Virus record (IMG/VR): IMGVR_UViG_3300045970_000131 | Coordinates: 1 to 57,393 of that record | Source: a virus | Lineage: Duplodnaviria > Caudoviricetes | Direction: 5' to 3' (one strand) | Length of the DNA stretch: 57,393 nucleotides | Shown here: piece after piece, positions 1-53,505 of the stretch | How the letters are laid out: each line of letters starts with the position of its first letter | Position numbering within the stretch: the stretch's first letter is position 1 | The notes under the pieces: model-generated | What the model was told of the DNA's origin: nothing | The model's input: the letters and a program-made list of their open reading frames with translations, nothing else | Database searches by the model: none | Made by a program: the position numbers and the translations under genes

Positions 1-3000
1 CACCAGAATCAATCGGGTAAACTTTCCATTGCTCAATTGCACCCTTATCTGCACTCTCTGTTTCAATCTCAACCAATCCAGCGGCAATATCATCAAAGAC
101 TTGATTCATGTCCTTGCTATCTGATTTTATGAGTTGGAATAAGCGACGATTGCTAGCTAGCTTTTGCCATGCAGTGACTAAAATATTTACGTCATTGTTA
201 CGATTGAACGCTACATCCGATCCGTTATCACTTGATATTTGTTCCCCATTTGAGAAGGCTACTAGCGCCTTTCTTAGTGAATTTCTCAGCGCTTCAACAT
301 CTGAAATGTAGCGGGATGAACCTAAGTTTTGCAGCTTGGTGATAGCTTGATTTAAAAATCTGATGGTTGCATTCAAAAGACCTTTGAATTTATTACCGTC
401 TGCATTGGCCAGTTCTTGCAAGAACTTAGTATCACTCAATGCATCGCCAGTAAAGTCAGCTAATAGCTCACTTAATGCAGTTTCAGTCTTGTATGGCTTC
501 TCGCCATCTTTAAGCTTTTTGTTTAGATTTTCGTGATAAGCGCCGAAGTTTTGAATATATTGCTCGGCTTGCTCTTTGAACCATTCATGTAAGTCAGGGC
601 GTGTACGTTCTAATGAGTGATAAAGCTCATGCCCAGCAATAGTAGTTAGGTTTGTTTCGGCTCTTGCGTTGACGTAGATTGCACTGGGGCTGTTTCGCAG
701 CTGGACACCGGCAAAGATGTCGAAGTCTGGCTTGGTTGGGCTAACATATCGGAGCTCTTTTCCAAAGGCAGCTTTAATTTCTTGTTTGTATTCAAGAAGG
801 GTGTCAGGCACGTCAACCGATTCAAAACTATCACTCCAATTACTATCAAAATATTTAACCAATGCTTTGTTTAATACTTTAGCACCAAATTGGGATTTTG
901 ACTTTGTAAGCTGTAGTTTTGTACCGGTACCAAGCGAAAAGAACGGATCATTACGGCTGAAAAGTGGCAAGCCTTGCATGACTTGATCACGCATTTCAGG
1001 CGTGATAGTAATTGTATTTTGAACCAATCCAATTAAAGATGAATTTCCATCAGCATCTTCAAGTAGTTTTCCACTGTCAACATCTTGCAGCTCAACCTTT
1101 CCGCCACCAAGTTTTTTAAGCACGTCCTTGGCTACTTTAGGCACGATCTGATCATAGAATACGCGCATGCCTTCACCGCCTACCTTTAAATCATCTGCTT
1201 CAATGGTTCCAACTCTTGAATTTGTACTTGATTCAATGATTTTTTTGGCAACGTCTTTTCCTACAATATCCTCAAGTTTGTTTTCTGGAATGTTTGAAAA
1301 TCTTTCATCTTGCGCTTGCATTCCAACGCCATTAGCAATTGGGTTCAAATCATAAACATTTACCCCATTGTTAAGCCTTGCAGGGTTTGTGATAGTCCAT
1401 TTTATTTTATCAACTTGCTTACTCAAATCATATAAGTCAGCTGCTTGCTGGCCATTGATTAAAGCAACCTTATCGAAGCCGTTTTCAGCTGCATAGCGGA
1501 TCATGCGTTTCATGGCCAGCGATACCCAAGCATCAGTTTTGGTAACAAATGGTGCTGTTGGAATATCACCTATTCTTCTTGCCCCTTGCTCACTCAGCTG
1601 ATCAAACTCAACACCTTCTAATTCACTTAACGAGTTATTAAGCCATTTTTTGCGTAATTCATCATAACGGGCTTTAGCTTTAGGGTTTGTATTAAACCCT
1701 GTTTTCTTACCTGCTTGGCCCCAGTCCGATTGAATCTCGTTTATGAATAGCACCTTGTTGCCTTCTGCATCAGTGCGCTCGTCAAAGCGAACATGGGCTA
1801 AGATGTTTTTTTGTGTGAAGTGTCCAGAAGTATAATCATTGTTGCTATCTCGTGATTCTTTTGCTTCATATTGATTAATACTTAAAGGAAATCTATTCTG
1901 ATCGTCAGCAAATCTTTCAAACGCTTTAATTAGAATTTCATCATTAAGCTCAATTGCTCTTTGTTTCATTGTTTCAGTCGCTTGTAAGCTTTCATCAATA
2001 TACTGCTGAGCCTCTTCGCGTGTTTTAAATCCATCCTTTGGCTGATAACCAATAACTTGATAGGTCAATACTGGCTCGTGCCTTTCTGGTAAAGTCAGCA
2101 ACAACTCTTTGTAGTTATTGCCACCAGCCACGGTATAGTCTTTGTATTTTGTTGGCTTATACTTATTTTCACCCTTGGTAATGGTACTAACTGAGCCACC
2201 CATGTCGAGATTTACTTTATAGCCTAAGCTTTCCGCCTCTTCGACAAACTGATCCTCATCAATTTCACCATCATCTACCTGCATGACTAAATCTTGTAGG
2301 TCAGTAGGCATTGAATCAAAGTCTTTCGGGCTGTATGTTTCAGCATTGAATAATGCATCGCCTAAAATGGTTTCATCAACCTGTACGCCGTTATTATTGA
2401 GGTAGTCTAATACTTGCGCCTTAGTCACTTGGCCTTGTTGTAAATCGAGCCAATCACTAACGCCAGACCATTCAATTTCGTCCTGCTTCACGCCTTTTTG
2501 CGTAAGGTTTTTGATCAGGTTTTTCCATGCATCGGCAGGCGCTTTATTCAATTTAACGCCATCCACTGCACGTGTTAATGCACTGTAGAAAATAGGTGCA
2601 CGACTGAATAATGGATTGACATTTTCACTGGCAATGGTTGATAATTCTTTTACAGCTTCCGCGCCCAACTTACTGTCGGTAGAGTCAGCTCTAAGTTGCG
2701 TAGCTTTTTTGGTGTCATTCCCCGCCTTAATTGCATCGGATTGCTTTAATTTCCATCCAGTCAGTAACCACCCATTATTTCCCTTGTTCTTAACTAAAAT
2801 AGCCTCATAATCACCTTTGGCAACTACTATTTGCTGGTTATTGTTTATTTGGCTTTGTCTAATCACCTTACCACTTGCAATCGTATCAATAAGGTCTTTG
2901 GTTAGTAGCTTGTAAATATCATTCACAGACATGCCATCTTTAGCCATACGCTGTTTAATAATATGTTGAATACCTTTAAATTCATCACCCCATACAAAAT

Positions 3001-6000
3001 CAATCCAGCCAAGTTCATTGTGATACATGGCACGTTTTACATCAGCCTTAGTTATCAAGGCTTGATTCATGGATTTCTCACCATGCGTCACGTTAGCATC
3101 CACTGATTTCATAGGACTACGGCTAAATGAAACCTCTTCATCACCAGGGCGCTCAACATTCCGAAGCCTTACAAATATGCCAGCTGCTTTACCTTTTGGA
3201 TAATAGGCGAAGCGATCTGCCTCTCTTGCATTAGCAATTGATATTGATGGATCAGTAATAAATACGCCTTCGAGCTCTTTACCTTTATTGGTAGTCACTT
3301 TCTCAGCTGGCGCATTAGTGATGAGTTTGTCGCCTTTAATTTCAAAGGTAACATTCTGGCCAGATTTAGCAATCGCGCCAGACTCAGCGGCCTTAGCATC
3401 ACGCTCACGCGCCTCGATGTCCTTTTGTCGGGTAGATTCTGATTTTGTTTCTGCAGTAGCTGGCAATTGATCATCAGTTAATGGCTTGGCACGTGGCTTG
3501 AGCTCAAGGTCTTCAATGCGATCAAATAGGTCATTGATGTCGCTAATGCCTGTATAGTCTCGCTTTACTTGCTGAGGTGCATTTTCTGCGCTTGCTTTCT
3601 CGATGACAACAATGCGTGTATTAACTGCGGTACCTGCACGCTCAAATGTCACGCTTGGCAACTTAATGTCAGCGGCCAAATAGAGCCCGTCAGCTGGGCG
3701 GTAGGTTTCTTTACGCTTGCCAGTAGCCTTTACGTTAGTTACTGATGTAGGATTAACACCAACTTCGCCATTCGTGCCTTCAATCTTTACCAATAACATA
3801 TCATTGGATGCTCTAATCAGCTTGCCCGTAGCAGCCCAAGATAGACGTGACTCGATAGTGTCACCCTTATATAGCTTGCCTAATGTTGGATCATCAACTA
3901 ACGGCTTTACATCGCGCTCAGACTCTTCGTAAAACCACTTATCAAACTTCTGATCAGTAGCGCCCACTGGGATCAATGCAACAATGCGGCCACCGTCATT
4001 CAAGTGGCGTGCAGCTTTTGCTACGTGATCCACTGCAGTTCTACCAGCTGAACCAAAAGGCGGATTCATCACAATAGCATCGTACTTATTAATGATGTTT
4101 AGGTCTTCAAAGTCATGGCCAAGAATATTTCCGCCATACACCATGGCCAGTCTAGGGCGTAGCGCCATGCTTGGCTCAATAGCTGTTCTCTCTGAGTTTT
4201 CAGGCAGCCAGCGTGCAATCGCACCATGGCCAGCGCTTGGCTCTAATGATTTTTCACCAGCACGAATGTCAGCAAATTGCACCATCTTCAAGCCTACTGG
4301 TTCTGGTGTGGCGAAGTAGTCATTGCCTTCCTGTGCTTTTGTTTTGGCTGTTTTCTTTTGGGTACCGTAATAGAATGCTTTTGCACGATCAAACTCGGTC
4401 AAGGCTTCATTGGCTGCGCGATCACGCTCTTTACCGCCTTTGCCTTCGCCTTCCATGCCTGCACGATAATCGCCAGACTCTTCAAAGCCTGTAATAAATG
4501 CATCCTTGAGTGCGCGAGCTTGCTCACCCATGGCCAAGTTTTCAGCTGCACTAGCACGCTGCGCAATGGTTGTTGCAAAGGCCCAGCGCTCCCAGTTTGT
4601 ACCGGTATTTAAGTAACGGAAAATTGCATCAGTGACTTGGCCAGTACGATAAATACGGCCTTCTTGCTGGATTGATGTGGTTGGCTGTGTCGGCTGGCCA
4701 AGATTAAACAATACGCGCTGATGCTTGCCCGTAGTGTCGTGCAGGCTGATACCCTCTTTACCTGCAGCTGATTGCACCAAAATGACTTGCGCACCAGTAT
4801 TGTCATTGTTGAATTTAGCAACGTTCTCACGGCGCACCTTGCTTGGTACATCACCATTGAATAGCAGCACGTTAGGGAATTCAGTCTGGAAAGTAGTGAT
4901 CGGTGAAGATGATCTAAATTCTGGTGAATTTACAAGGTCGCTAAAATCAGATTTAAACTCATCAATTACCTGATTGACATCATCTGCATCGCTATCTGTC
5001 TGGCCTTCAGTTACATAGCCCATATTAAATGGGTTAAAGCCACCGCCCTTTTTATAGTCGTGGAATACCACAACCTTACGGCCAAGCGCCATATGCTCTT
5101 TAACGTGCGCAACTACTGCCTTGGCTTTGATTGCCTCTAGCAAATACCTGCGTGAAAGATAGTCAAACTTATCACTGAGTAACTTTTGCACTGCATAGAT
5201 AGCAGCTGTACGCTTCTTGTCTTCGGTGGCTTTTCTTTGCAGCTCGAACCATTGCAATGCCTGATCAATACGGGTACCGATGGCTGAGTCAATCAATACG
5301 AATTTACGGTCATAATCAGCATCGACATCGAGCATACGGCTAGATAAAACACCGTTCTTTTTCAGCCAAGTATTGAATTGGCGCTGCATTAGGCCGCGAT
5401 CTACCTTAGCATCTGGCTCAGTCAATTTGTTATAGCGCATTCTGTAACCAAAATGCTGCATCATGAATCGGTCTAGGTTACTGCCTGAATTGTAGCCACG
5501 GCCAGCGGTACCACTTGAGCCATCATTTGCTTGGCCCTCGTTGTAGTCGAATAGATAGCCGTTCGCCCAGTCAACCGTTTTTTCATAAGCGAATGGTGTT
5601 GCAGATAGAAACAATGTGCGAGTACGTGCTGCCCCTTGTGATTCTTTAACCTGTGCGCGAACCTTCTCATTGGTTTCACGATTTAAGGCAATAGCCTTGT
5701 CTAGCTCATCAGTAAGCTTGTCATTCAAAGCATCGTTATCAGCTGCTTGTTTATCAGTGAGTGATTGGCTTTTACCAAGTTCAATCGTTTCTTCAAGCTG
5801 TTCTTGAATTAATTTTAGCTTAGCAATGTCATCACGATAGAGCATTTCATGACGTGTGGCCATGCCTTGTGGGTGATTAGTAATAGCACGCAATGTCTTT
5901 AATGCATTGGTGTTGGTACCGTTCTTATCCATGGCAAGATAGTGGGCCTCATCATGTACGATTAAATCCCAGTTACGATCTGCCAGTGTTTTATTGCTGC

Positions 6001-9000
6001 CCATGTTGGCATAGGTAGTGATGGTGATGCCACTGCCTGCGTCAGTAGTTGAATCTAGGCGATTGATTTTTAGGCCAAGCAACTTGCCTGTGTTTTGCCA
6101 GTCTTCAATGATCTTATCGTTAGGCGCTACAATCAGGGTATTTTCTTTGCCAGCATTGGCAAAGCGCTTAATAACGCCTAAGCCGGTGAAGGTCTTACCG
6201 GTACCGGTACCGTTAGTAAACAACATGCCGTAGCCTTCTGGCTGGCTAAATCGTTCCTCAGTTTTGAATACATCTTCTTGCTGGCCAGCTTTTAGAATTG
6301 GTAATGTAGCGCGAACATTTTCTAGGGAATGCTCTTGTTTTACCTTGTCGGCCTTGATTTGCTCAATTTTGCTTATTGTTGGGAATAATCCGCCTTGAGC
6401 AAGCTCGTCAATTGCTGTTGCTGCGTTTGGTTCAATGGGCGCTCCTGTGATGCCACTATCACCGCCTCGCTGATCGACACTATTTCCAGCAGTGCCGACT
6501 TCCACTGTGGGTGATCCTGTGTAAACTTCGATATTGCTACGTTCTCTAGCAGTAGGGGTTTCAAATCCAAGTAACTCTCCGCTACTTGGTGATCCACTTT
6601 CTTGATCAGACTCTTGTATGCTTGATTCTCGTACTCGGCCATTTGATCCTGATTCATTTTGAATGCTTGTTTTGCCCAGTCTGTTTGCAGGCGCTGCGTT
6701 TTTGCTATCTGGTTCCAGATTGGTGCTGCTACGCTCGTTAGTGACATTTTTGCTATCCTTTAATTCATCAAGTGACTCAACACTGACTACATCACGTTTT
6801 TTACTGGCCTTATCGCCATACTTGCCAGCCATGCCAATATAGCTGCCTTGCAAGTGATCAATGCTCACGCTATCCGCTACATCATCGCCAATTTTAGCGC
6901 GGATTGTATCAAGCACAAACTTAGCTGCAGCTTTAAACTCATGATACCCAAGTCTGAATGCTGCATCAAACAGGCGTGTTAATACTTGGATTAGCTTTTG
7001 CTCTTGCTCTGGCGTGATGTTGCTGCGAAAGCCTCTGCCAAAAATTTCACCCAAATCACCAAGCGCATCATCAAGGTCAGATTTAGCCTTTTTAGTAGCT
7101 TCATCATTTTTTGGTGGCTCTGTCTCTTCTGGTGCAGGATCAGACAACAAATCACCCTGCCCTGCATATTGAGCATCAATCTGCTTTTCTACTGCTTTCT
7201 GTGTCTCTTCTTGGGTTTTAGCTTGGGGGGAAAGTTCAAAGCCTGCCGCTGCTAATTCTTGGCGCTGTTTACGCTCGGCTTCAATCTTAGCGGCACGCTC
7301 GGCCTTTAGTTGCTCGATTTTTTGCTTGGCTGTTTTTTTAGTAGCTTCAATGCCTGAGTTAATCTCAGCATTTGTTTGGCCAACTAAATCAAGTGTGGGT
7401 GCTACTTCTTGTCTGGGTGATTCGCGGTTTTCTGTTTGCTCAGAATTTTCTGCGCTTCCTGAATCTGCTGCTCGCTCAACGGCTGCTTGTCCAGAAGCAT
7501 TGTTCTCAGCATTCCCGCTACTATTGGGTTGTTGTTGCCCTTGTTCGGATTTCTTTGCATTCTTTATTTCCTCAAAAAGTTGCTTTCTGCTTTTTACTGG
7601 CACTTCACCAAACATAGCGCCTTGAAGTTTGTTAGTATCAGCTAGTTCAGATTGTTTTACAACAAAATCAGTCCAGCTTTTAAACGCTTCGGCAAGTTTG
7701 TTTTTAGCACGCATATTTGCAGCAAAAAACTCAGCAATCGCAACGGCTTCATCGCTAGTTAAAGCATCAACATTGGCCAAGTATTCACCAATAGGCTTAC
7801 CACTGCGCTTTGCATTGATAATGATACCAGCGGCCTCAACTGCTGCGCCGCGTATATCCATATCGTCTTTACCCTCAAGCTTAATCATTAAGGGTGCAGC
7901 CACGCCAAGTGCATTGATCACGTTCTTGGCTTCCTCATCGGTAGCCTCAGAATAAAGCCTTACCAGCTCATCACTGCCATATGCCTTATAAAATATGGCC
8001 GCATGTATGCGATCAATTGCTTGCCTGCTTATCTGGCCATTGCTGGATAACCCTGTTTTCTCGGTATCTGGTAATGATGCGATCCAGCGCTTAATGGATT
8101 CAACTGACAAATCACCTGATTCATCATGCTCAATGCTATCAATGTTTAAGCGCTGCGCATCATTCTTTGCCTGCTCAACTGGGCTTAGCTGTGCTGTTTG
8201 TGAAATATTGCTCAAATCACCAATGTCATTGGTAATGTGCTGCTCATTCATGACTCGAACTAATACTGGGTTTTTGAATGACTCTACTGCAGCTGGATCA
8301 ATCCCGACTTTGTTTGCCTTCTGGATTAGATCGGCTTTGTATTGTTCGGCTGTCTGTTGCTCATACCCGCGTGCAATACCAGCGGCACGTCCATTGCCAG
8401 CGATTACACGCATTTTACCGCCGGCCCCTGATTGATAGCTGTCATTGGGTATTCCACTAACATTGTGTGAAGTGATCAAGTCATTTGCATCAACTACTGC
8501 ATACTGGGTATCGTAGCGATTGCCTTTACCATCTACCGTCACATCTTTGTCGCCTACTGCAATATTACTTGGCAGCGCATTATCATTTCCGAAAACAATC
8601 GGCGCACCTGTTTGCATGTCGTTGCTAATGCCAGCGCGTAAGAAGTCAGGATTAGAAGCAATAGCCTGCATTTGGTTGATGCTAGATGGACTGGATCGGT
8701 CACGGTTTTGGAGTATTAAGCCATCTTGTGAAACCACATCTTGCGCACGTGACATTTCATCAGGCGGCAATAGATCAATCAGTGAATTGTCAGATCGAGT
8801 TGATACAGTAGTATCGCTTGTATCATTGGCTCGTAAATCATCGGCACTGGTTCCCATGGTTGGTTGGTTGCCAGAAAATTCAGCTCCTGTGCTTCCCGCT
8901 GCGGGATTAATAACAGGTCTACCATTTCCTGTAGGTTCTTGGCTAGCGGCTGATTCATTTTGACTGCTGACATTGGGTTGCTCCTGTGTGCTAACGTCTG

Positions 9001-10600
9001 GAAAAGCAAGATCAGGATATTTAGCCTGCATTTCTGCAATAATCTCAGCATCCATATCATTATTTGATGCGGTGTCGCCAATTGGTGACGGATTAGTTTC
9101 GTTAAAGTTAGCAATCTCTTCATGCTTTTGTTCTGCCCTTGCCCGTGCCTCTTCATCATGCGGGGCCATGATCATATCAACTAAGTCTGAACGGCTTAAT
9201 TTAGGCTTTTTGGCTGTGCTTGGTGCTAAGCCTTCAGTATTCCATTTGTTGATCGCATCATCTTTTGCTTTATCTGCTGTCTCGTATGGGTCTGGTAGAT
9301 AGGTTTCATTTTTGAATTTTCTGGCCACATGGCTTGCGCCTGATACGGCACCAGCCATAATCACAGTAGCAATCAAGGTATCAAATGCAGCTTGTGGGCG
9401 CTCGCGTAGGTAGTCACCCCATGTTTTATCTGGATTAGCTATCGCGGTATCGACTGCATCTTGTGAGAGTGTTGCCACCTCTTCGCCTGCTACTTCTTTT
9501 TTGAAGAAGTCTTTTAACAGGTCGAGTGTTTTAACCTTGCCGAATTTTTCAACCACGGCACTCATTGGCATAAACTCGGTAAGCACCTCTAAGCTGCCCT
9601 CGCCTAATGCGCCAATAGCAGCCTCTACGCCTGTTGCACCGCGCTCGCGGTACTTGGCATAAGCTTGTGCCTCAGTTTGCACCCCTGCTGCAGCTAAGGC
9701 GGGAATAGCGCTGCCCGTAGCAACACCAGCGGCCAATGCAGGTGCATTTTGCATAAAGCTTGAAAGGCCGCTATACGCTGAGTTAAATAACGGGCTATCA
9801 AACTGAGGGGTTGAGCGCTCGATGTCGCCCTGAATTTGTTGGTATTTGCGCTTAGCATCTGCCTTCATATCATCGCTGCCGATAATATCAGCGAATTGGC
9901 TTCTAACGCCTTGACGTGCAGCGTCCATGCCTTGGCTAGTAGCCTGACCTAATCCTATTACTGCATTGCCAAATGTACCATCTGCAGCCTGATTGTCATT
10001 GCCTATGCTGTCTGGATTGCTATCCATTGCACTTGGCTCAAAGTTGCGTGCCATCGTAGACAAATCACTAAGGCCCAATGACGGTTTACCACGTACATTT
10101 TTAGGCCGTTTAAGCTGCTCACTGATCAAGGCTTTTGCAGCTGGATCATTGGTGCGTGACATTGCATCATTCAATGTCTGTGTTTCTGCATCTGAAATAG
10201 GCGTACTAATCTCGGTACCTAAAGCACCATGCGCAGCGGTTACATTGCTATAGTCTTTTAAACCGGCTTCATCAATGCGACTTTGCTCATCAGCGGTAGC
10301 TTGATGAACACCAGGCTTATAAGAAACTTGGCTTGCATCAGGTAAGCCAAACACTTTATCCAGATTAGATAGGCTATAAATGCCTAAGCCATCATCCTTG
10401 ATAGGTTCAGCTGCTTGAACAGGTTTATCAGCCTTGGCTTGATTACTGGCTTTGATTTCAGCAACTTTGTCCTGCTTAACTTTCTTTGATAATTCAGCAT
10501 GGCCATCGCTAAAAACACTTGCGCGGCCTGCACTACCTTTTACATTGGCATATGGATCAGCAATATACCCATTCTCATCTAACCCTTTTGCATCATCCAT
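1..10600 (-). CDS. Giant polyvalent DarB-like ejection protein, N-terminal 3,533 codons (open off the left edge; continues at the right end of the window)
   Basis: ATG at 10600 overlaps the upstream TAA (TAATG). Motifs checked in the same frame: ddrB-like ParB (LQNRDRS ~8710, IAGNGR), SF2/SNF2 helicase (GTGTGKT, DEAH 5953, LSATPF, QQEGRIYR), N6-adenine MTase (EPSAGHG, NPPF 4066), BECR nuclease (WG..GIQHI...WLLTGW ~2990), EIQSDW domain (1738), zincin HELYH (631). No stop seen; absent from the ORF track because it lacks a stop in the window. Confidence 0.93.
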   Translation of the reverse strand, partial: MDDAKGLDENGYIADPYANVKGSAGRASVFSDGHAELSKKVKQDKVAEIKASNQAKADKPVQAAEPIKDDGLGIYSLSNLDKVFGLPDASQVSYKPGVHQATADEQSRIDEAGLKDYSNVTAAHGALGTEISTPISDAETQTLNDAMSRTNDPAAKALISEQLKRPKNVRGKPSLGLSDLSTMARNFEPSAMDSNPDSIGNDNQAADGTFGNAVIGLGQATSQGMDAARQGVRSQFADIIGSDDMKADAKRKYQQIQGDIERSTPQFDSPLFNSAYSGLSSFMQNAPALAAGVATGSAIPALAAAGVQTEAQAYAKYRERGATGVEAAIGALGEGSLEVLTEFMPMSAVVEKFGKVKTLDLLKDFFKKEVAGEEVATLSQDAVDTAIANPDKTWGDYLRERPQAAFDTLIATVIMAGAVSGASHVARKFKNETYLPDPYETADKAKDDAINKWNTEGLAPSTAKKPKLSRSDLVDMIMAPHDEEARARAEQKHEEIANFNETNPSPIGDTASNNDMDAEIIAEMQAKYPDLAFPDVSTQEQPNVSSQNESAASQEPTGNGRPVINPAAGSTGAEFSGNQPTMGTSADDLRANDTSDTTVSTRSDNSLIDLLPPDEMSRAQDVVSQDGLILQNRDRSSPSSINQMQAIASNPDFLRAGISNDMQTGAPIVFGNDNALPSNIAVGDKDVTVDGKGNRYDTQYAVVDANDLITSHNVSGIPNDSYQSGAGGKMRVIAGNGRAAGIARGYEQQTAEQYKADLIQKANKVGIDPAAVESFKNPVLVRVMNEQHITNDIGDLSNISQTAQLSPVEQAKNDAQRLNIDSIEHDESGDLSVESIKRWIASLPDTEKTGLSSNGQISRQAIDRIHAAIFYKAYGSDELVRLYSEATDEEAKNVINALGVAAPLMIKLEGKDDMDIRGAAVEAAGIIINAKRSGKPIGEYLANVDALTSDEAVAIAEFFAANMRAKNKLAEAFKSWTDFVVKQSELADTNKLQGAMFGEVPVKSRKQLFEEIKNAKKSEQGQQQPNSSGNAENNASGQAAVERAADSGSAENSEQTENRESPRQEVAPTLDLVGQTNAEINSGIEATKKTAKQKIEQLKAERAAKIEAERKQRQELAAAGFELSPQAKTQEETQKAVEKQIDAQYAGQGDLLSDPAPEETEPPKNDEATKKAKSDLDDALGDLGEIFGRGFRSNITPEQEQKLIQVLTRLFDAAFRLGYHEFKAAAKFVLDTIRAKIGDDVADSVSIDHLQGSYIGMAGKYGDKASKKRDVVSVESLDELKDSKNVTNERSSTNLEPDSKNAAPANRLGKTSIQNESGSNGRVRESSIQESDQESGSPSSGELLGFETPTARERSNIEVYTGSPTVEVGTAGNSVDQRGGDSGITGAPIEPNAATAIDELAQGGLFPTISKIEQIKADKVKQEHSLENVRATLPILKAGQQEDVFKTEERFSQPEGYGMLFTNGTGTGKTFTGLGVIKRFANAGKENTLIVAPNDKIIEDWQNTGKLLGLKINRLDSTTDAGSGITITTYANMGSNKTLADRNWDLIVHDEAHYLAMDKNGTNTNALKTLRAITNHPQGMATRHEMLYRDDIAKLKLIQEQLEETIELGKSQSLTDKQAADNDALNDKLTDELDKAIALNRETNEKVRAQVKESQGAARTRTLFLSATPFAYEKTVDWANGYLFDYNEGQANDGSSGTAGRGYNSGSNLDRFMMQHFGYRMRYNKLTEPDAKVDRGLMQRQFNTWLKKNGVLSSRMLDVDADYDRKFVLIDSAIGTRIDQALQWFELQRKATEDKKRTAAIYAVQKLLSDKFDYLSRRYLLEAIKAKAVVAHVKEHMALGRKVVVFHDYKKGGGFNPFNMGYVTEGQTDSDADDVNQVIDEFKSDFSDLVNSPEFRSSSPITTFQTEFPNVLLFNGDVPSKVRRENVAKFNNDNTGAQVILVQSAAGKEGISLHDTTGKHQRVLFNLGQPTQPTTSIQQEGRIYRTGQVTDAIFRYLNTGTNWERWAFATTIAQRASAAENLAMGEQARALKDAFITGFEESGDYRAGMEGEGKGGKERDRAANEALTEFDRAKAFYYGTQKKTAKTKAQEGNDYFATPEPVGLKMVQFADIRAGEKSLEPSAGHGAIARWLPENSERTAIEPSMALRPRLAMVYGGNILGHDFEDLNIINKYDAIVMNPPFGSAGRTAVDHVAKAARHLNDGGRIVALIPVGATDQKFDKWFYEESERDVKPLVDDPTLGKLYKGDTIESRLSWAATGKLIRASNDMLLVKIEGTNGEVGVNPTSVTNVKATGKRKETYRPADGLYLAADIKLPSVTFERAGTAVNTRIVVIEKASAENAPQQVKRDYTGISDINDLFDRIEDLELKPRAKPLTDDQLPATAETKSESTRQKDIEARERDAKAAESGAIAKSGQNVTFEIKGDKLITNAPAEKVTTNKGKELEGVFITDPSISIANAREADRFAYYPKGKAAGIFVRLRNVERPGDEEVSFSRSPMKSVDANVTHGEKSMNQALITKADVKRAMYHNELGWIDFVWGDEFKGIQHIIKQRMAKDGMSVNDIYKLLTKDLIDTIASGKVIRQSQINNNQQIVVAKGDYEAILVKNKGNNGWLLTGWKLKQSDAIKAGNDTKKATQLRADSTDSKLGAEAVKELSTIASENVNPLFSRAPIFYSALTRAVDGVKLNKAPADAWKNLIKNLTQKGVKQDEIEWSGVSDWLDLQQGQVTKAQVLDYLNNNGVQVDETILGDALFNAETYSPKDFDSMPTDLQDLVMQVDDGEIDEDQFVEEAESLGYKVNLDMGGSVSTITKGENKYKPTKYKDYTVAGGNNYKELLLTLPERHEPVLTYQVIGYQPKDGFKTREEAQQYIDESLQATETMKQRAIELNDEILIKAFERFADDQNRFPLSINQYEAKESRDSNNDYTSGHFTQKNILAHVRFDERTDAEGNKVLFINEIQSDWGQAGKKTGFNTNPKAKARYDELRKKWLNNSLSELEGVEFDQLSEQGARRIGDIPTAPFVTKTDAWVSLAMKRMIRYAAENGFDKVALINGQQAADLYDLSKQVDKIKWTITNPARLNNGVNVYDLNPIANGVGMQAQDERFSNIPENKLEDIVGKDVAKKIIESSTNSRVGTIEADDLKVGGEGMRVFYDQIVPKVAKDVLKKLGGGKVELQDVDSGKLLEDADGNSSLIGLVQNTITITPEMRDQVMQGLPLFSRNDPFFSLGTGTKLQLTKSKSQFGAKVLNKALVKYFDSNWSDSFESVDVPDTLLEYKQEIKAAFGKELRYVSPTKPDFDIFAGVQLRNSPSAIYVNARAETNLTTIAGHELYHSLERTRPDLHEWFKEQAEQYIQNFGAYHENLNKKLKDGEKPYKTETALSELLADFTGDALSDTKFLQELANADGNKFKGLLNATIRFLNQAITKLQNLGSSRYISDVEALRNSLRKALVAFSNGEQISSDNGSDVAFNRNNDVNILVTAWQKLASNRRLFQLIKSDSKDMNQVFDDIAAGLVEIETESADKGAIEQWKVYPIDSG
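2616..2645 (+). promoter_or_regulatory. Putative sigma70 promoter antisense to the giant gene
   Basis: TTGACA (2616-2621), 18 nt, GATAAT (2640-2645), pointing toward the BECR nuclease coding region. Confidence 0.5.
2652..2745 (+). ncRNA. Candidate structured small RNA embedded downstream of the BECR nuclease domain
   Basis: Closing stem TCCG(2658)/CGGA(2737); stem CAACTTA(2666)/TAAGTTG(2692); inner hairpin AGAG-TCAG-CTCT; begins just after the promoter. Confidence 0.35.
6373..6747 (-). CDS. Overprinted (+1 frame) 124-aa protein nested in the giant gene linker before the helicase
   Basis: AAGGA SD 8 nt before ATG; amphipathic helical composition, whereas the host frame here is a disordered S/G/E linker. 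Confidence 0.7.
   Translation of the reverse strand: MSLTSVAAPIWNQIAKTQRLQTDWAKQAFKMNQDQMAEYENQAYKSLIKKVDHQVAESYLDLKPLLLENVAISKFTQDHPQWKSALLEIVSISEAVIVASQERPLNQTQQQQLTSLLKADYSQQ
7402..7560 (-). CDS. Overprinted (+1 frame) 52-aa protein nested after the ParB-like domain
   Basis: TGAGGA SD 8 nt before ATG; MQRNPNKGNNNPIVAGMLRTMLLDKQPLSEQQIQEAQKILSKQKTANHPDKK; spans the linker. Confidence 0.5.
   Translation of the reverse strand: MQRNPNKGNNNPIVAGMLRTMLLDKQPLSEQQIQEAQKILSKQKTANHPDKK
8779..8973 (-). CDS. Overprinted (+1 frame) 64-aa protein nested before the ParB-like domain
   Basis: AGGAG SD 7 nt before ATG at 8973; MSAVKMNQPLAKNLQEMVDLLLIP...ILLYQLDLTIH; stop just before the ParB domain begins. 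Confidence 0.6.
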   Translation of the reverse strand: MSAVKMNQPLAKNLQEMVDLLLIPQREAQELNFLATNQPWEPVPMIYEPMIQAILLYQLDLTIH

Positions 10601-32087: not shown

Positions 32088-32870
32088 TTATCCTGCACGC
32101 CAGTTATATGGCCTTCGTGATGATGAATCTGATTTTTTAGGCTCTACAATTGCATACCTAAGCATCATCATTCCGTATCGTGTCGCTGATAGTAAGTCAT
32201 CAGCAAGCTTGACTATCACTCCCTCTTTACGGTGATACAAGCGGTACTCTTCAAACCATTCATTCAAGTGCTTGAACACTTTGAACCTACCTGTTGCCAT
32301 ACGGGTAAGCATTTCCTGAATGCCTGCCTCAACACTCACAATCGATGTAAGCGGATCACCGTCTGTCGTAGGCAAGAATTGCGCATGCTCATGCAGCATG
32401 TTGACCTTTTCATGTCGGTACTGCTCGGCTACCTGATGGCCAGACATTGCATCTTTCACTTGGTAGCCATCATGTGGCCATGCCACAGGAATCCAGTCGC
32501 CACGCGCTCGAATTGAGCTGGCAATCGTAGGGATGAGCGTTTGTCTTACGCGGTAACAGTCATATACATATAGCGTGTCACTGTCTCTATCCCATGCGAT
32601 CCATGCATTCGCGTTTGGGTGATCCCAGCCAAAGTCCATGCCACAAATGCGCGGCCAGTGTGCAGGGATTGCAAACGGCTCACACGTCAAGTCTTCCTCT
32701 TTTACAGGGAATACAGCACCAGAACCCAGCGCAGGCAGCCCCTTAGAACGTGCATCACGTAAATGTGCTGGCGTTGCATCGTAAAGTTCTTTCTTGGTCT
32801 TCTCATCCAAGTGAGGCACATCGTTCCAGCCAGCCATCACAAGGTATTTGGTATCACTTACTCTTGGCAT
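32088..32870 (-). CDS. terL: Terminase large subunit, C-terminal nuclease part
   Basis: WNDVPHL, GMDFGWDHP, WPHDG, DDLLSATRY (P22-like TerL). Confidence 0.9.
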   Translation of the reverse strand: MPRVSDTKYLVMAGWNDVPHLDEKTKKELYDATPAHLRDARSKGLPALGSGAVFPVKEEDLTCEPFAIPAHWPRICGMDFGWDHPNANAWIAWDRDSDTLYVYDCYRVRQTLIPTIASSIRARGDWIPVAWPHDGYQVKDAMSGHQVAEQYRHEKVNMLHEHAQFLPTTDGDPLTSIVSVEAGIQEMLTRMATGRFKVFKHLNEWFEEYRLYHRKEGVIVKLADDLLSATRYGMMMLRYAIVEPKKSDSSSRRPYNWRAG

Positions 32871-33614
32871 TTATGAAACCTTTTGAATGCCATTGGGCAG
32901 GAATGTTTGTACCATTTCAGTGACACCCTCTAGCGGGGTGAATGTCGTAAATATGATCCCTTTTGTCGTGGCGGTACGGATCAAGCACTCGCCGTAAATC
33001 TCTAGCGGTGGTTCCTCATCCAACCAGATGACATACTGTTCGGTACCCTCGAATGATCCACGGCCTTGCTGATATGACTTTAGGCCCAGCGTAGACCACT
33101 CACCGCTTACATGCTTTATTTGAGCCGTATCGATGAGGTCTTGCACGCCCTGCTTCCAAGTCAGCTTGCCAATGCAGTCAAACGGAATCAGACCAGTACC
33201 ATCAACACCCTTAGCACCGCTTTCGTAGGTGATCTTGCCAAATAGCTTGGCCTGCACGATGTCACGTGTCGTTTCATTAGTTTTACCGGCTGCCCATGCA
33301 GTGATCGGATCGGTAAACACTTTACCTTCCCACCAATGCGGGTAATTGCCAGTGAGGTGCAATGTTGTTTCATACCCACCAGCGCCTTCAGTCTTACCAA
33401 TGCGGTTTGCTGCCATGAATAGGCGCTCAAGGTAGTCTGCCCCAGCTTTGAAGAATTCCATATGCTTAGGATAGAGCTCACGCCTTAACGGGCCATCATC
33501 AGGGTACATGCCCTCAATCTTCTTGCGTTTAAGCCTGATAACCTTCTGTTCAATCAGTTCCAGCAACTCCAACTTTTCCGAGTAGGTAAGTGAGTCGGTT
33601 ATCAAGCTGCTCAT
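32871..33614 (-). CDS. terL: Terminase large subunit, N-terminal ATPase part
   Basis: Walker A AANRIGKT, Walker B WLDEEPP, coupling motif TFTP. Confidence 0.9.
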   Translation of the reverse strand: MSSLITDSLTYSEKLELLELIEQKVIRLKRKKIEGMYPDDGPLRRELYPKHMEFFKAGADYLERLFMAANRIGKTEGAGGYETTLHLTGNYPHWWEGKVFTDPITAWAAGKTNETTRDIVQAKLFGKITYESGAKGVDGTGLIPFDCIGKLTWKQGVQDLIDTAQIKHVSGEWSTLGLKSYQQGRGSFEGTEQYVIWLDEEPPLEIYGECLIRTATTKGIIFTTFTPLEGVTEMVQTFLPNGIQKVS

Positions 33615-45377: not shown

Positions 45378-46418
45378 ATGAATACAGCATTACAGACATC
45401 ACAGGACTTTAGCGGTAGTAGTCAGACAAATGCGGTCACTGAAACTGCATCAACGGCAATAGCTGCGCAATCAAAAGCAATGGTTGAAAGTCGTTACATC
45501 ATGGCGATGCGCAATCCGCGCAATTGGGATGGTGTGCGTCAAGAGCTATTAAAAGAGTGCCGCCGCCCTACTTTTGCCAACAATCAATCTGCTTACTATG
45601 TTAAGCCAATTGGTAAAGGCGTTGAAGGCTTGGGCATTCGCTTTGTAGAGGTTGCTTTACGTTGCATGAAAAACGTATTAGTTGAAACAACCATGATTTT
45701 TGAAGATACCGAAAAAGAAGTTCACCGCGTATCGGTCACTGATCTTGAAGCCAATATTACTTATCCACTTGATGTACGTGTATCTAAAACAGTAGAGCGC
45801 AGCAAGCCAAATAGTGATGGCTCTTACATAAGCGTGCGTAAAAACAGCTACGGTAAAGAAACATTCACCGTGCTAGGCACAGATGACGATCTACTTAATA
45901 AGCGTGGCGCTCTTATTTCTAAAGCTATTCGTACTATTGGGCTACGAATCATACCAGGTGACTTGTGTGATGAAGCCGAAGAAATCATTAAGCGCATTCG
46001 CTTAGACGATGCAGCAAAAGACCCTGATGCAGAGCGCCGCAAGATTGTTGATGCTTTTTCAGCTATTGGCGTTTCAGCAACAGACTTGGTTTCATATTTA
46101 GGTCATGACCTAGCCAAATGTTCACCAGCACAGATTGTTGAGCTACGTGGAATATATGGCGCTGTTAAAGATGGCGAAGCAACTTGGCAATCTGTAATGG
46201 ATAACAAAGCTGAGCAAGGTTCGTCCACCATAGGAAAGAAAAAAGCTGAACTTCCAAACTGCACCGCAGAGAGCTTCGACAAGCAAAAAGTCGGCTGGAT
46301 GAAGGTGATCGAGTCGAAGAAAAAAACTCCAAATGAGTTAATTGCAACAATCGAAACCATAGAAATTTTATCAACTGAACAGAAGCTTGAAATTGCTTCT
46401 TGGCTACCACAGGAATAA
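45378..46418 (+). CDS. Putative recombination (ssDNA-annealing) partner of the YqaJ exonuclease
   Basis: Adjacent to exonuclease; SKAIR..GLRIIPGD motif; family not firmly recognised. Confidence 0.55.
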   Translation: MNTALQTSQDFSGSSQTNAVTETASTAIAAQSKAMVESRYIMAMRNPRNWDGVRQELLKECRRPTFANNQSAYYVKPIGKGVEGLGIRFVEVALRCMKNVLVETTMIFEDTEKEVHRVSVTDLEANITYPLDVRVSKTVERSKPNSDGSYISVRKNSYGKETFTVLGTDDDLLNKRGALISKAIRTIGLRIIPGDLCDEAEEIIKRIRLDDAAKDPDAERRKIVDAFSAIGVSATDLVSYLGHDLAKCSPAQIVELRGIYGAVKDGEATWQSVMDNKAEQGSSTIGKKKAELPNCTAESFDKQKVGWMKVIESKKKTPNELIATIETIEILSTEQKLEIASWLPQE

Positions 46419-46420
46419 TC

Positions 46421-48010
46421 ATGCAAACCTTACACTTGGTTCAAGGAAGTCAGGATTGGTTGGCTCACAGAAGCCAAACCCACATTAAAAATGCATCTGA
46501 TGCGCCTTCTATGATGGGGGTATCACCTTACGAAACACGCGATGAATTGCTTTATCGTAAAGCAACTGGCATCACTAAAACGGTTAGCCCGTCCGTACAA
46601 AAGCGATTTGATGATGGTCATCGTTATGAAGACTTGGCAAGGCCGATTGCTGCCGAAATAGTCGGTTTAGCGCTCTACCCTGTCACTGGTGTGTCTGGCG
46701 ATTATTCTGCCAGTTTTGACGGCCTAACCATGATGGAAGATGAAGGGTTTGAGCATAAAAGCTTAAATGATGAACTTCGATCAATCATGGTTGGCGATTT
46801 CACTGGTGCCGATTTGCCTATCTACCATCGCATTCAAATGGAACAGCAGTTAATGGTTTCAGAAGGCACAAGAATATTATTCATGGCCTCAAAGTGGGAT
46901 GAGAAAGACGAATTGTTAGAAGAGCGTCATTGCTGGTACTACCCTGACTCAAACCTACGCCAAGACATCGTTAACGGCTGGGTGCAGCTTGATTTTGAAC
47001 TTGCCAACTATACGCCACCAGAAGTTAAAGAAATGCCAAAGGCTGAGGTATCAATTGATTTGCCTGCCCTTTTCATTCACGCCCACGGTGAAATCACTAA
47101 TAGCAACATGGAAGCCTACGGCATAGCGCTGGCAAAGCGCCTTGAAGAAGTCCGTGCAATTGTCCTGCAGGATGATCAAGACTTTGTAAATGCAAAAGAA
47201 GCCGCAAAGAAATTACGTGATGGTATCAAATCAGCCCAGCTAGCCAAAGAAGCCATGCTTGCGCAAACCGTGACTGTCGGTGAAGCCTCTCTATTAATTG
47301 ATGCTTGGTGTGAAGATATGCGCTTGACTGCGCTTCAGCTTGAAAAAGACGTTGAGCGCGAAGATGCCAAGAAGAAACAAACCATGATTCTTGCTGGTAA
47401 ATCAAAAATTACTGAGCTTTTAGCTGAGTTAAAAGCAGTCATCGCACCAATTAACCTAATCTATAAAGAACCCAATTTTTCATTAGCAATTAAAAACAAA
47501 CGTAACTATCCAAGCATGGAAAGTGCTGTTAATGACATGGTTGCTGCAACATCAGTAGAGATAAGAAGCATTACCAATGATGTAAAAGGCAAAATGAATT
47601 GGTTTGAGTCTACGATAGGCGATATTAAGCATCCCCTATTCCCTGATTTGCAATCTGTGATTTATAAGCCTACTGATGATTTCCAATTGCTTGTAAATGC
47701 TCGCATAGAAGAGCAGAAAAAGCGCGATGCAGACATTGCATCAGAAGCAGCGAAAAAGGCAATTTCAGCAGCGCAGGAAGTAGCAGCACAAGAGTCGGTT
47801 AAAGAAGTTATACAGGAGCCAGCAGCTGCAAGCGTTACAGAGGTTAAGCCTGTTTCAACTTATATAAAACAAGCAGCCGTTATCGATAACCAAGATGACA
47901 TTGCACGATTCTTAAAGTCACGCGGATTAAGCGATTCAAAATATAACGAGTACCGCGCAGTTTTAGTTGAGTTTGTGAAGTTTACAGCTAAAGAAGAAAT
48001 GGCAGCCTGA
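46421..48010 (+). CDS. YqaJ / lambda-exo-like exonuclease with coiled-coil tail
   Basis: QGSQDWLAHR, ASDAP, G...E..AR, ASFDG, EHK, Q...QL; AGGA SD. Confidence 0.88.
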   Translation: MQTLHLVQGSQDWLAHRSQTHIKNASDAPSMMGVSPYETRDELLYRKATGITKTVSPSVQKRFDDGHRYEDLARPIAAEIVGLALYPVTGVSGDYSASFDGLTMMEDEGFEHKSLNDELRSIMVGDFTGADLPIYHRIQMEQQLMVSEGTRILFMASKWDEKDELLEERHCWYYPDSNLRQDIVNGWVQLDFELANYTPPEVKEMPKAEVSIDLPALFIHAHGEITNSNMEAYGIALAKRLEEVRAIVLQDDQDFVNAKEAAKKLRDGIKSAQLAKEAMLAQTVTVGEASLLIDAWCEDMRLTALQLEKDVEREDAKKKQTMILAGKSKITELLAELKAVIAPINLIYKEPNFSLAIKNKRNYPSMESAVNDMVAATSVEIRSITNDVKGKMNWFESTIGDIKHPLFPDLQSVIYKPTDDFQLLVNARIEEQKKRDADIASEAAKKAISAAQEVAAQESVKEVIQEPAAASVTEVKPVSTYIKQAAVIDNQDDIARFLKSRGLSDSKYNEYRAVLVEFVKFTAKEEMAA

Positions 48011-51813: not shown

Positions 51814-52020
51814 ATGAAATGGGTAACAGTAAAAAAACATGCAGCTGATACTGGGTATAGTGAAGATGCGCTGCGCCAAAAAATAAGGCGCGGGATTTTC
51901 ATTGAGGGCGTACACTATCGTCACTCACCAGATGGCAGAATTCAAATTAACGTGGAGGCATACAACGCATGGGTGGAAGGCAAACGACTGGAATTACATC
52001 AAGAAGCGAAGGCAGCATAA
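51814..52020 (+). CDS. xis: Excisionase
   Basis: wHTH WVTVKK.A..TGYSEDA.R.KI..G...EG.HY..SPDGRI; overlaps the int start. Confidence 0.85.
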   Translation: MKWVTVKKHAADTGYSEDALRQKIRRGIFIEGVHYRHSPDGRIQINVEAYNAWVEGKRLELHQEAKAA

Positions 52021-53129
52021 CAATTCAGTTTATGTGGAAAGGCATTAATTGCCGTGAAACAATTAAGCTTGAACCGACAAAAGCTAATCTACAGTACGCC
52101 TTTAGGTTACGTGCAGAAATACTCAGAAAAATTGAATTAGGTAATTTTGACTATGCTGAGTATTTCCCAAACTCTAAGCGTGCGGGAATAGAAAAGCGGA
52201 AAGCACCACTCTTTAAAGATTTAGCCGAAGATTGGCTGGCCGTTAAAAAGTCAGAACTTGCTTGGTCTAGTTACATCACTTATAAAAAGCATCTAAATCA
52301 TCACTGGTTGCCTGTATTTGGTGAAAAGCGTATCAATTCAATTGTACTTAGTGATATTACAAGTCACTTGGCTAAGATCGATGCATCAGCTAAAACAAAA
52401 AATAATATTCTTATTCCAATGCGTAGCGTGCTTGAAGTTGCATTTTATGACGGAACAATTAATACCAATCCAGCAGATCGTATAAAAAACATGAAGGCTC
52501 AAAAACCAGAGCCTGATCCGTTTACATTAGATGAAGCTAATCTAATCCTTGACCGCATGCGTAAAAACTACCATGAGCAAGTTGTAAATTATTTTGAATT
52601 TGCTTTCTTTACCGGACTGAGAACGTCTGAATTGATCGAACTGCAATGGGGTGATGTAGAAGAAACCAACATTACTGTGCGCCGCGCTCGCGTTGAGGGC
52701 AGAGTGAAAGCAACTAAGACCTATACTATTCGCCAGGTGTCACTCAATGAACGTGCCAAAGCTGCCATACTTAGGCAAATGAAACACACTAAGATGAAAG
52801 GTAAGTATGTATTCAATAACCCAGTAACAGACTTGCCATGGAATGATCAGCGCGCACAAAGCAAATTGTATTGGCTTCCGACTCTTACTGCATTGAAATT
52901 AAGGGAGCGTGTGCCATATCAATGCCGCCATACATTTGCAACGATGATGTTAATGGCTGGGGCAAATCCTATGTGGGTATCAAAACAGATGGGCCACGTG
53001 AATATGAAAATGTTGCTTGAAGTTTATTCACGTTGGATAGATTTAGCAGATAAGTCAAAAGAGGTTGACAAGGTAAATTCTGCACTATTTAGCACAAACT
53101 CAGCACAAGTTAAAATTGATAATTTGTAA
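51969..53129 (+). CDS. int: Tyrosine integrase with arm-binding domain
   Basis: TGLRTSE, TKT, YQCRHTFAT, QMGH, VY catalytic motifs; FDYAEYFPNS arm domain. Confidence 0.95.
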   Translation: MGGRQTTGITSRSEGSITIQFMWKGINCRETIKLEPTKANLQYAFRLRAEILRKIELGNFDYAEYFPNSKRAGIEKRKAPLFKDLAEDWLAVKKSELAWSSYITYKKHLNHHWLPVFGEKRINSIVLSDITSHLAKIDASAKTKNNILIPMRSVLEVAFYDGTINTNPADRIKNMKAQKPEPDPFTLDEANLILDRMRKNYHEQVVNYFEFAFFTGLRTSELIELQWGDVEETNITVRRARVEGRVKATKTYTIRQVSLNERAKAAILRQMKHTKMKGKYVFNNPVTDLPWNDQRAQSKLYWLPTLTALKLRERVPYQCRHTFATMMLMAGANPMWVSKQMGHVNMKMLLEVYSRWIDLADKSKEVDKVNSALFSTNSAQVKIDNL

Positions 53130-53355: not shown

Positions 53356-53505
53356 ATGAGAAAAAGATTTAAGATTGATCTTGAATATATCGGTGGATGG
53401 ATTATAGCGATTTCTGTAGTTGCTGGCGCAACTGGCGCAATTATAGAGCTGATACGGTATGGTGCTATTACCGTATCAGGCTCCATTGGTGCAGCTGGCT
53501 ATTGA
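53356..53505 (+). CDS. Small membrane protein, 49 aa (not in the track)
   Basis: MRKRFKIDLEYIGGWIIAISVVAGATGAIIELIRYG...; TATGAT 6 nt upstream suggests a leaderless start. Confidence 0.4.
   Translation: MRKRFKIDLEYIGGWIIAISVVAGATGAIIELIRYGAITVSGSIGAAGY

Follow-up and report, generated by a model that had tools for sequence, protein, structure and literature searches.

The DNA analysed here (hereafter the window, meaning all 57,393 bases of the IMG/VR virus record IMGVR_UViG_3300045970_000131, which is rated 97% complete) carries on its minus strand a giant gene for a many-domain 'polyvalent' protein. Wholly within this gene, on the same strand and in another frame (+1), lies a second open reading frame (ORF) of 124 codons. 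A preliminary description had singled out this small ORF, whose product we refer to as P0001, as a nested gene and as a candidate regulator of the helicase-methyltransferase module encoded just downstream of it. The features of the locus are as follows; residue numbers are those of the giant protein translated in the main frame, and pLDDT is the predicted local distance difference test score.

2..10600, minus strand: giant polyvalent ('DarB-like') gene, an ORF of at least 3533 codons, open past the start of the window
6373..6747, minus strand: embedded gene, product P0001; 124 codons plus TAA, ATG start, +1 frame of 2..10600(-)
6756..6760, minus strand: Shine-Dalgarno-like AAGGA, 8 nt before the ATG at 6745..6747
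6760..6762, minus strand: nested-frame stop codon (TAA), 5 codons ahead of the ATG
6374..6748, minus strand: main-frame stretch sharing its DNA with the embedded gene; residues 1285-1409, with 13.6% Ser, 12% Gly and 10.4% Glu
6434..6739, minus strand: predicted disordered spacer of the giant protein; residues 1288-1389, pLDDT 34-46, no secondary structure
6764..7096, minus strand: folded helical domain of the giant protein; residues 1169-1279, pLDDT >90, conserved in frame 0 in 6 loci
3923..6289, minus strand: helicase plus methyltransferase module, beginning 21-87 nt past the stop codon of the embedded gene

The extent of 124 codons, the AAGGA at its 8-nt distance from the ATG and a stop codon about 50 nt ahead of the helicase had all been claimed in the preliminary description, and all are found at the locus: the embedded ORF spans main-frame residues 1285-1409 and conserved helicase sequence sets in from residues 1416-1438, leaving a gap of 7-29 codons (21-87 nt). 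The further claim that this is the longest nested ORF has to be withdrawn, since three other ORFs within the giant gene exceed it: one of 126 codons that shares its +1 frame (8779..9159(-)) and two on the opposite strand (7995..8435(+), 146 codons; 8520..8963(+), 147 codons). The 126-codon ORF was considered as a second nested gene and, having no relatives, rejected as a chance ORF. The length of the embedded ORF is, in itself, unremarkable. When the codons of the giant gene were shuffled 2000 times, the longest +1 ORF measured 95 +/- 22 codons on average and reached at least 124 with P = 0.09, synonymous shuffles gave P = 0.108 for a +1 ORF of this length, and the +1 frame of the giant gene is poor in stops overall (184 in 3532 codons). 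Length alone is within chance expectation; the conservation of the embedded ORF is far beyond it.

This conservation was followed in peptide, profile and helicase searches, the locus sets of which share contigs, so that the counts given below are not additive. In a tBLASTn check with P0001, eight of nine related viral loci were matched at 43-65% identity, each time in the +1 frame of the ORF spanning the locus. Among cultured phages, tblastn with P0001 matched Serratia phage Parlo, Pseudomonas phage Skulduggery, Klebsiella phage ZX1 and Ruegeria phage 45A6, in all four within an annotated giant coding sequence (CDS) and in its +1 frame, and a profile built from 44 family members (A1) also finds the small gene in Vibrio phages 1.232.O and D274 (E about 1e-21). 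The small gene is present in all six distinct cultured phages (eight records) that have the helicase, as judged by matches to its N-terminal part (E<=1e-20) and to its full length (E<=1e-8). In plasmids tblastn with P0001 gave no match; profile A1 later found two records there, one from Comamonas (E 2.9e-22) and a diverged copy from Acinetobacter (E 1e-5). The latter, on the Acinetobacter oleivorans plasmid NZ_CP110255.1 (L081:2468-2848), is located about 385 nt inside a CDS that bears the annotation DEAD/DEAH helicase and has lost the otherwise invariant W11-N12. Searches with blastn in phages and plasmids returned short helicase matches only. None of the ten public records inspected has the small gene annotated.

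A profile scan of viral contigs yielded 51 loci, in every one of which the small gene is nested in the +1 frame, starts with ATG and encodes 121-153 amino acids; in 48 of the 51 the helicase starts 20-60 nt past the nested stop. To remove ascertainment by the small gene itself, we scanned with a helicase alignment (A2), which gave 494 relatives. Each of the best 80, which were examined (40-71% identity), carries a +1 ORF upstream of the helicase, 78 of them at E<1e-5 and two at about 3e-4, and helicase identity among carriers goes down to 33-40%. Both frames are held open across diverged relatives (80/80 and 51/51 loci). The preliminary description had named a lack of conservation among homologues sharing the helicase as the observation that would speak against it; we find instead that 80/80 viral loci, 6/6 phages and 2/2 plasmid records carry the +1 ORF, and this conservation strongly supports a real nested gene immediately before the helicase-methyltransferase module. 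In loci with a split giant gene (L047, L050, L075, L066; L093, L102, L104, L148, L159), it is the ORF with the helicase that retains the nested ORF. An outward search from a distant helicase (L160) added four new loci only. One helicase relative, L165, has no match to the small-protein family, and there (L165, 1..2000) only about 25 residues separate the upstream helical domain from the helicase, a spacer of roughly 100 residues being missing. The joint absence of small gene and spacer suggests, as a single case, that the spacer exists because of the small gene.

The signals for initiation are conserved as well. Among 77 unique loci ascertained by their helicase, the ORF starts with ATG in 75, a Shine-Dalgarno-like 4-mer is present at -17..-5 in 67 (20% of same-frame control positions; p about 1e-36), and a stop codon closes the nested frame at most 5 codons upstream of the start in 23. 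The window is one such case, its TAA 5 codons upstream of the ATG shutting the nested frame to ribosomes shifting in from the main frame. No slippery motif common to 13 aligned upstream sequences is visible. The conserved ATG, the Shine-Dalgarno-like word and the upstream stops point to independent internal initiation and argue against entry by frameshifting. A search for an internal promoter gave one weak sigma-70-like site against 2.0 expected; since no promoter stands out, the late mRNA that encodes the giant protein would be the likeliest template.

We then asked on which of the two frames selection acts. Nine sequences, compared over the shared nucleotides, have a mean pairwise identity of 51% for the nested protein and 35% for the main-frame protein. 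In a sliding three-frame comparison the +1 frame outscores frame 0 only at the embedded gene (967 versus 604 bits); elsewhere in the giant gene frame 0 is ahead two- to four-fold. Nucleotide variability in 20 loci follows a normal coding pattern when sorted by the codon positions of the nested frame (.481/.392/.551; the helicase, as a control, gives.396/.337/.618), and sorted by main-frame positions it is the third positions that vary least (.547/.473/.415). In 14 phylogenetically independent close pairs (72-97% nucleotide identity), of the changes silent in a single frame, 321 are silent in the nested and 124 in the main frame, at an opportunity ratio of 0.86 (binomial p = 2e-28). Synonymous resampling that kept the nested protein fixed left the main frame open in 0 of 20000 trials, and resampling with the main protein fixed left the nested frame open with P = 0.0073. 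The sequences thus indicate purifying selection on the embedded frame that is stronger than that on the main frame.

The two products differ sharply in their predicted structure. AlphaFold2 folds P0001, from a 44-row alignment, into a compact structure of seven helices with a mean pLDDT of 91 and a predicted template modelling score of 0.85. The preliminary description had proposed amphipathic helices with Trp residues; the tryptophans (W11, W24 and W82) and the helices, in the all-helical prediction, are borne out. Invariant in the family are W11, N12, I14, A15, P64, E68, A71, I72, E88, E94, A95, L113 and L117; P0001 contains no Cys, and the isoelectric point of family members has a median of 5.3 with a spread from 4.05 to 9.2. 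The main frame was modelled over residues 1140-1440 from a 33-row alignment, and there AlphaFold2 places, after the folded helical domain and the structureless residues 1288-1389, a helix leading into the helicase. In these models, order belongs to the product of the embedded frame, and what the long frame contributes from the shared DNA is a disordered spacer.

Searches for known relatives of the small protein were negative. Pfam and PHROGs hold no family for P0001, and a Pfam search with the 44 members at E<=1 gave scattered weak matches only, to 13 families. Two of these sub-threshold matches recur, PrmC_N (6 of 44 members, lowest E 0.014) and TrmK (4 of 44, lowest E 0.0053); they are probably noise, though curious beside a methyltransferase module, both being helical domains attached to methyltransferases. 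A sequence profile search of the PDB gave a best E of 0.76, Foldseek found nothing at E<=0.001 in the PDB and BFVD (template modelling score at most 0.35), a wide VIA-align search stayed below Z 5 throughout (best 4.3), and the ESM Atlas gave no usable match. TnpV (Pfam PF14198) had no match in P0001, in the 44 members at E<=1 or in the six-frame translated window at E<=10, and its hidden Markov model none in three genomes with family loci or in 401 genomes of one phylum. A complex prediction for the helicase region (661 amino acids) with the small protein scored 0.00; it gave no answer and speaks neither for nor against binding.

On this evidence from sequence and its modelling, the embedded ORF is very probably a genuine, translated gene. 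Out-of-frame embedded genes are textbook rarities in tailed phages. A close precedent is Rz1 in Rz, the spanins of phage lambda and its relatives, where a larger phage gene contains the whole of a small +1 gene with start signals of its own. The Rz1 product, a lipoprotein, has about 60 residues and a Cys in its lipobox; Rz and Rz1 bind each other, and both are functional. The locus described here resembles this pair in strand, in frame and in the separate start signals of the embedded gene. It differs in that P0001 has twice the length of Rz1 and is, by prediction, a soluble helical protein, and in that the host gene encodes a polyvalent protein of more than 3500 codons with the overlap falling in a disordered spacer. 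P0001 is not itself an outer-membrane spanin of the Rz1 type, the signal peptide of which carries a lipobox Cys, since P0001 lacks Cys altogether. Overprinted genes are also known from the tiny genomes of phages such as phiX174 (B in A, E in D), which are under size pressure. There too, two frames share the same DNA and one product is compositionally biased or disordered, but the present case concerns a 57-kb tailed phage, and the embedded product is the folded and better conserved one, the long host frame being disordered. A third comparison is with phage P1: Piya and co-workers are reported to have found in 2017 that DarB needs small accessory proteins (Ulx, Hdf, DarA, DdrA/B) to be incorporated into the P1 virion. 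The shared element is a large methyltransferase-helicase antirestriction protein as virion cargo, which offers a working analogy for a helper role; unlike in P1, where the accessory genes are separate, the small gene is embedded here, and the domain order here is helicase and then methyltransferase. The arrangement is of the Rz1-in-Rz kind; what sets it apart is that the host gene encodes a giant polyvalent phage protein, with the small gene embedded in its spacer throughout a clade. We found no report of it in the literature on overlapping genes in DarB-like or polyvalent proteins and in the named phage genera (supplementary files lay outside the search), and PMC10052179 contains nothing relevant to an overlapping gene.

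The host gene of the overlap has the following further features, the Pfam domains among them being located by residue in the minus-strand gene 2..10600.

Residues 731-784, minus strand: ddrB-ParB domain of the giant protein (Pfam)
Residues 1438-2027, minus strand: ResIII/SNF2-type helicase (ResIII/Helicase_C) of the giant protein (Pfam)
Residues about 2171-2207 (Pfam MTS) and 2081-2226 (PHROG methyltransferase families), minus strand: methyltransferase domain of the giant protein
Residues 2524-2620, minus strand: PBECR1 nuclease-type domain of the giant protein (Pfam)
55973..57391, minus strand: probable continuation of the giant ORF, 473 more codons, open and in register with 2..10600

If the genome is circular or permuted, the giant gene would probably comprise about 4007 codons (3533 + 1 + 473). 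It stands at the end of a virion module and is preceded by terminase, portal, major head, internal virion and tail fibre genes. Its product combines multiple unrelated conflict-type domains, the helicase preceding the methyltransferase, and has virion, tail and portal genes as neighbours; according to Iyer et al. 2017 (PMC5512222), it is such a many-domain make-up that defines the polyvalent proteins of phages and conjugative elements. The likeness to the proteins described there extends to ddrB-ParB, helicase, methyltransferase and PBECR1 domains encoded beside virion genes, and the words 'overlapping' and 'frameshift' have no occurrence in the text of that paper, in which an out-of-frame gene inside such proteins is not described. 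The name 'DarB-like' follows the label that public records of relatives give to the giant protein; P1 is not among the eight phage records matched by the whole helicase (E<=1e-8).

Several neighbouring genes deserve mention in their own right. An 818-codon ORF just downstream (53502..55955(-)) matches C-terminal parts of giant PHROG families (phrog_18222, positions 1314-2113 of 2118, and phrog_15406, labelled DNA methyltransferase) and may be a further polyvalent-type cargo piece. A gene of the tyrosine-integrase family (51969..53126(+), phrog_1, E 4.6e-59) indicates that the phage is temperate, and a RecE-like exonuclease is encoded at 46400..48007. The match to the terminase large subunit falls on a 260-codon ORF, adjoined by a 247-codon ORF that belongs to an unnamed PHROG (32091..32870(-), 32874..33614(-)); the terminase may be split or interrupted.

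The family is large. A profile search of 1.84 billion cluster representatives returned 523 matches at E<=0.001, 364 of them at E<=1e-10. Of 149 matches inspected, 104 are 115-145 amino acids long and start at the family's own Met, proteins of stand-alone length from which it is evident that gene callers choose the nested frame on short contigs. Named records with the embedded gene are phages and plasmid-like elements of Alpha-, Beta- and Gammaproteobacteria, and the family as a whole amounts to 523 clusters at 50% identity. Some members have other architectures: in P0040 (659 amino acids) the domain forms the C-terminus, fused in frame to further sequence of polyvalent type and with its Met kept, in P0041, P0075 and P0078 it forms the N-terminus ahead of unrelated extensions, and in P0045, likewise fused in frame to polyvalent-type sequence, it precedes a stretch related to the window's upstream helical domain. 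P0042 is a chimera that switches between two frames three times, and is most likely an assembly product with indels. Of 12 loci on genome contigs, 9 are nested as in the window; in the other three (L020, L021 and L022) the main frame is broken or ended, there is no helicase downstream and host genes adjoin. These host genes include a class I tRNA synthetase (E/Q) catalytic-domain gene, a CoA-binding gene and an amino-acid-kinase/ACT gene, the last of which we take to be aspartokinase; other neighbours, read from their translations, are presumably MazE/MazF, Maf and YggS. The small-gene copies concerned (L020:1492-2001, L021:414-815 and L022:3-194) are read as prophage-edge copies or relics; in L020 the small gene has 169 codons, and the polyvalent-type ORF upstream of it ends 47 nt inside it.

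The explanation that fits these observations best is that of a dual-coding stretch with a partner protein, the spacer being a later addition, and we would give it, taken whole, about an even chance. According to this model, the giant polyvalent gene would be read straight through, placing a disordered spacer of about 100 residues between the helical domain and the helicase-methyltransferase module, and ribosomes initiating at the separate Shine-Dalgarno-like site and conserved ATG would read the +1 frame, giving a separate, compact, all-helical cytoplasmic protein of 124 residues from the same late mRNA as the giant protein. The small protein would serve as a dedicated helper of the module, acting as a folding or packaging chaperone or adaptor or, alternatively, as a keeper under which the module stays inactive up to its ejection into the next host. 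A helper role is suggested by the analogy with the small accessory proteins that load DarB in phage P1, and a comparable giant DarB-like protein was found by mass spectrometry to be virion-associated in phage JC1 (PMC9144972). From its position, the small protein may be a functional partner of the helicase-methyltransferase module, although we hold this at somewhat less than an even chance. Positional linkage is also what supports the candidate regulator role named in the preliminary description. As to its origin, two flanking genes may have merged into a single giant gene through read-through of a gene that lay between them in a different frame; that the small gene is older than the spacer seems to us evenly balanced. 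The full proposal, namely that in this clade the giant proteins arose by reading across a small gene that was there first, that the linker is its shadow and that the small protein is a dedicated partner (loader, chaperone or safety catch), is tentative and on balance rather unlikely to hold in all its parts.

Several points weigh against this explanation. The copies that lack a helicase (L020-L022) and the fused or extended forms indicate that the protein can exist apart from the helicase, which weakens the idea of an obligate partner. The helicase-based count covers the best 80 of 494 relatives, the alignments used to gauge selection were guided by the nested protein, and transition bias lies outside the model. 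The priority of the small gene over the spacer rests on one spacer-less relative (L165) and on the fused forms, the latter coming from short metagenomic contigs in which assembly errors may be present, as they clearly are in P0042. Lastly, with no known fold or family matched, the function is assigned by position alone.

Alternatively, the embedded gene may be real and its product an independent effector, for example in anti-defence or host takeover, the spacer being merely the only stretch loose enough to accommodate a second frame. We consider this unlikely, though a serious possibility: the helicase-less copies and the variants fused to unrelated sequence speak for such an effector, as does the wide scatter of isoelectric points, but the constant position of the gene 20-60 nt before the helicase (48/51 loci), its presence in 80/80 helicase relatives, the persistence of the linkage down to 33-40% helicase identity and the way the nested ORF stays with the helicase ORF in split genes all favour a connection with the module, and other disordered parts of the giant gene have no conserved second frame. 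A special case of the partner model would have the small protein act as an immunity-type inhibitor in the producing cell, where immunity proteins are known to neutralise polymorphic toxins; its target would be the ParB-like or PBECR1 nuclease or the helicase-methyltransferase itself. The ddrB-ParB and PBECR1 nuclease-type domains of the giant protein would make such protection plausible, particularly in a temperate phage (integrase at 51969..53126), in which leaky expression could be costly. We nevertheless hold it to be improbable, given that in split genes the nested gene tracks the helicase ORF and not the nuclease domains, and that no likeness to known immunity or antitoxin folds emerged (best VIA-align Z 4.3).

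The remaining two possibilities dispense with an independently initiated gene. Programmed +1 frameshifting from the giant frame, which would yield a truncated N-terminal protein ending in the helical domain, finds a parallel in P0040 with its in-frame C-terminal domain. That domain still has its Met, however, and the ATG in 75/77 loci, the Shine-Dalgarno-like word in 67/77, the nearby upstream stops (23/77 loci, and 5 codons away in the window) and the lack of a common slippery motif in 13 aligned upstream sequences make frameshifting very improbable. Finally, there may be no gene at all, with constraint acting instead on the main frame or on the structure of the DNA or RNA, and the open frame and its conservation merely following from it. 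An ORF length within chance (P about 0.09) and a +1 frame generally poor in stops would permit this. It is nonetheless extremely improbable in view of a main frame that is less conserved and whose third codon positions are the least variable, the excess of changes silent in the nested frame (p = 2e-28), a frame open in 80/80 loci with a conserved ATG, the confident fold obtained from the 44-row alignment and the stand-alone copies that persist where the main frame is broken.

In this locus the usual picture of an overlap is reversed, in that the embedded frame is folded and better conserved and the long frame is disordered, and the embedded gene has been retained throughout a clade. For one 'linker' in polyvalent proteins this provides a concrete explanation. 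Embedded genes of this class would be missed systematically by gene callers and phage annotation pipelines, as they have been in cultured laboratory phages. Since mutations that are silent in one frame alter the other, the overlap offers a clean genetic handle on the making, control and packaging of giant antirestriction-type cargo; in the ATG, for example, the central base occupies the third position of a giant-gene codon. If the proposed read-across origin is true, it would represent a general, so far unprinted way to fuse genes while keeping the intervening one, and read-across fusion may recur in other DarB-like lineages with other small genes.

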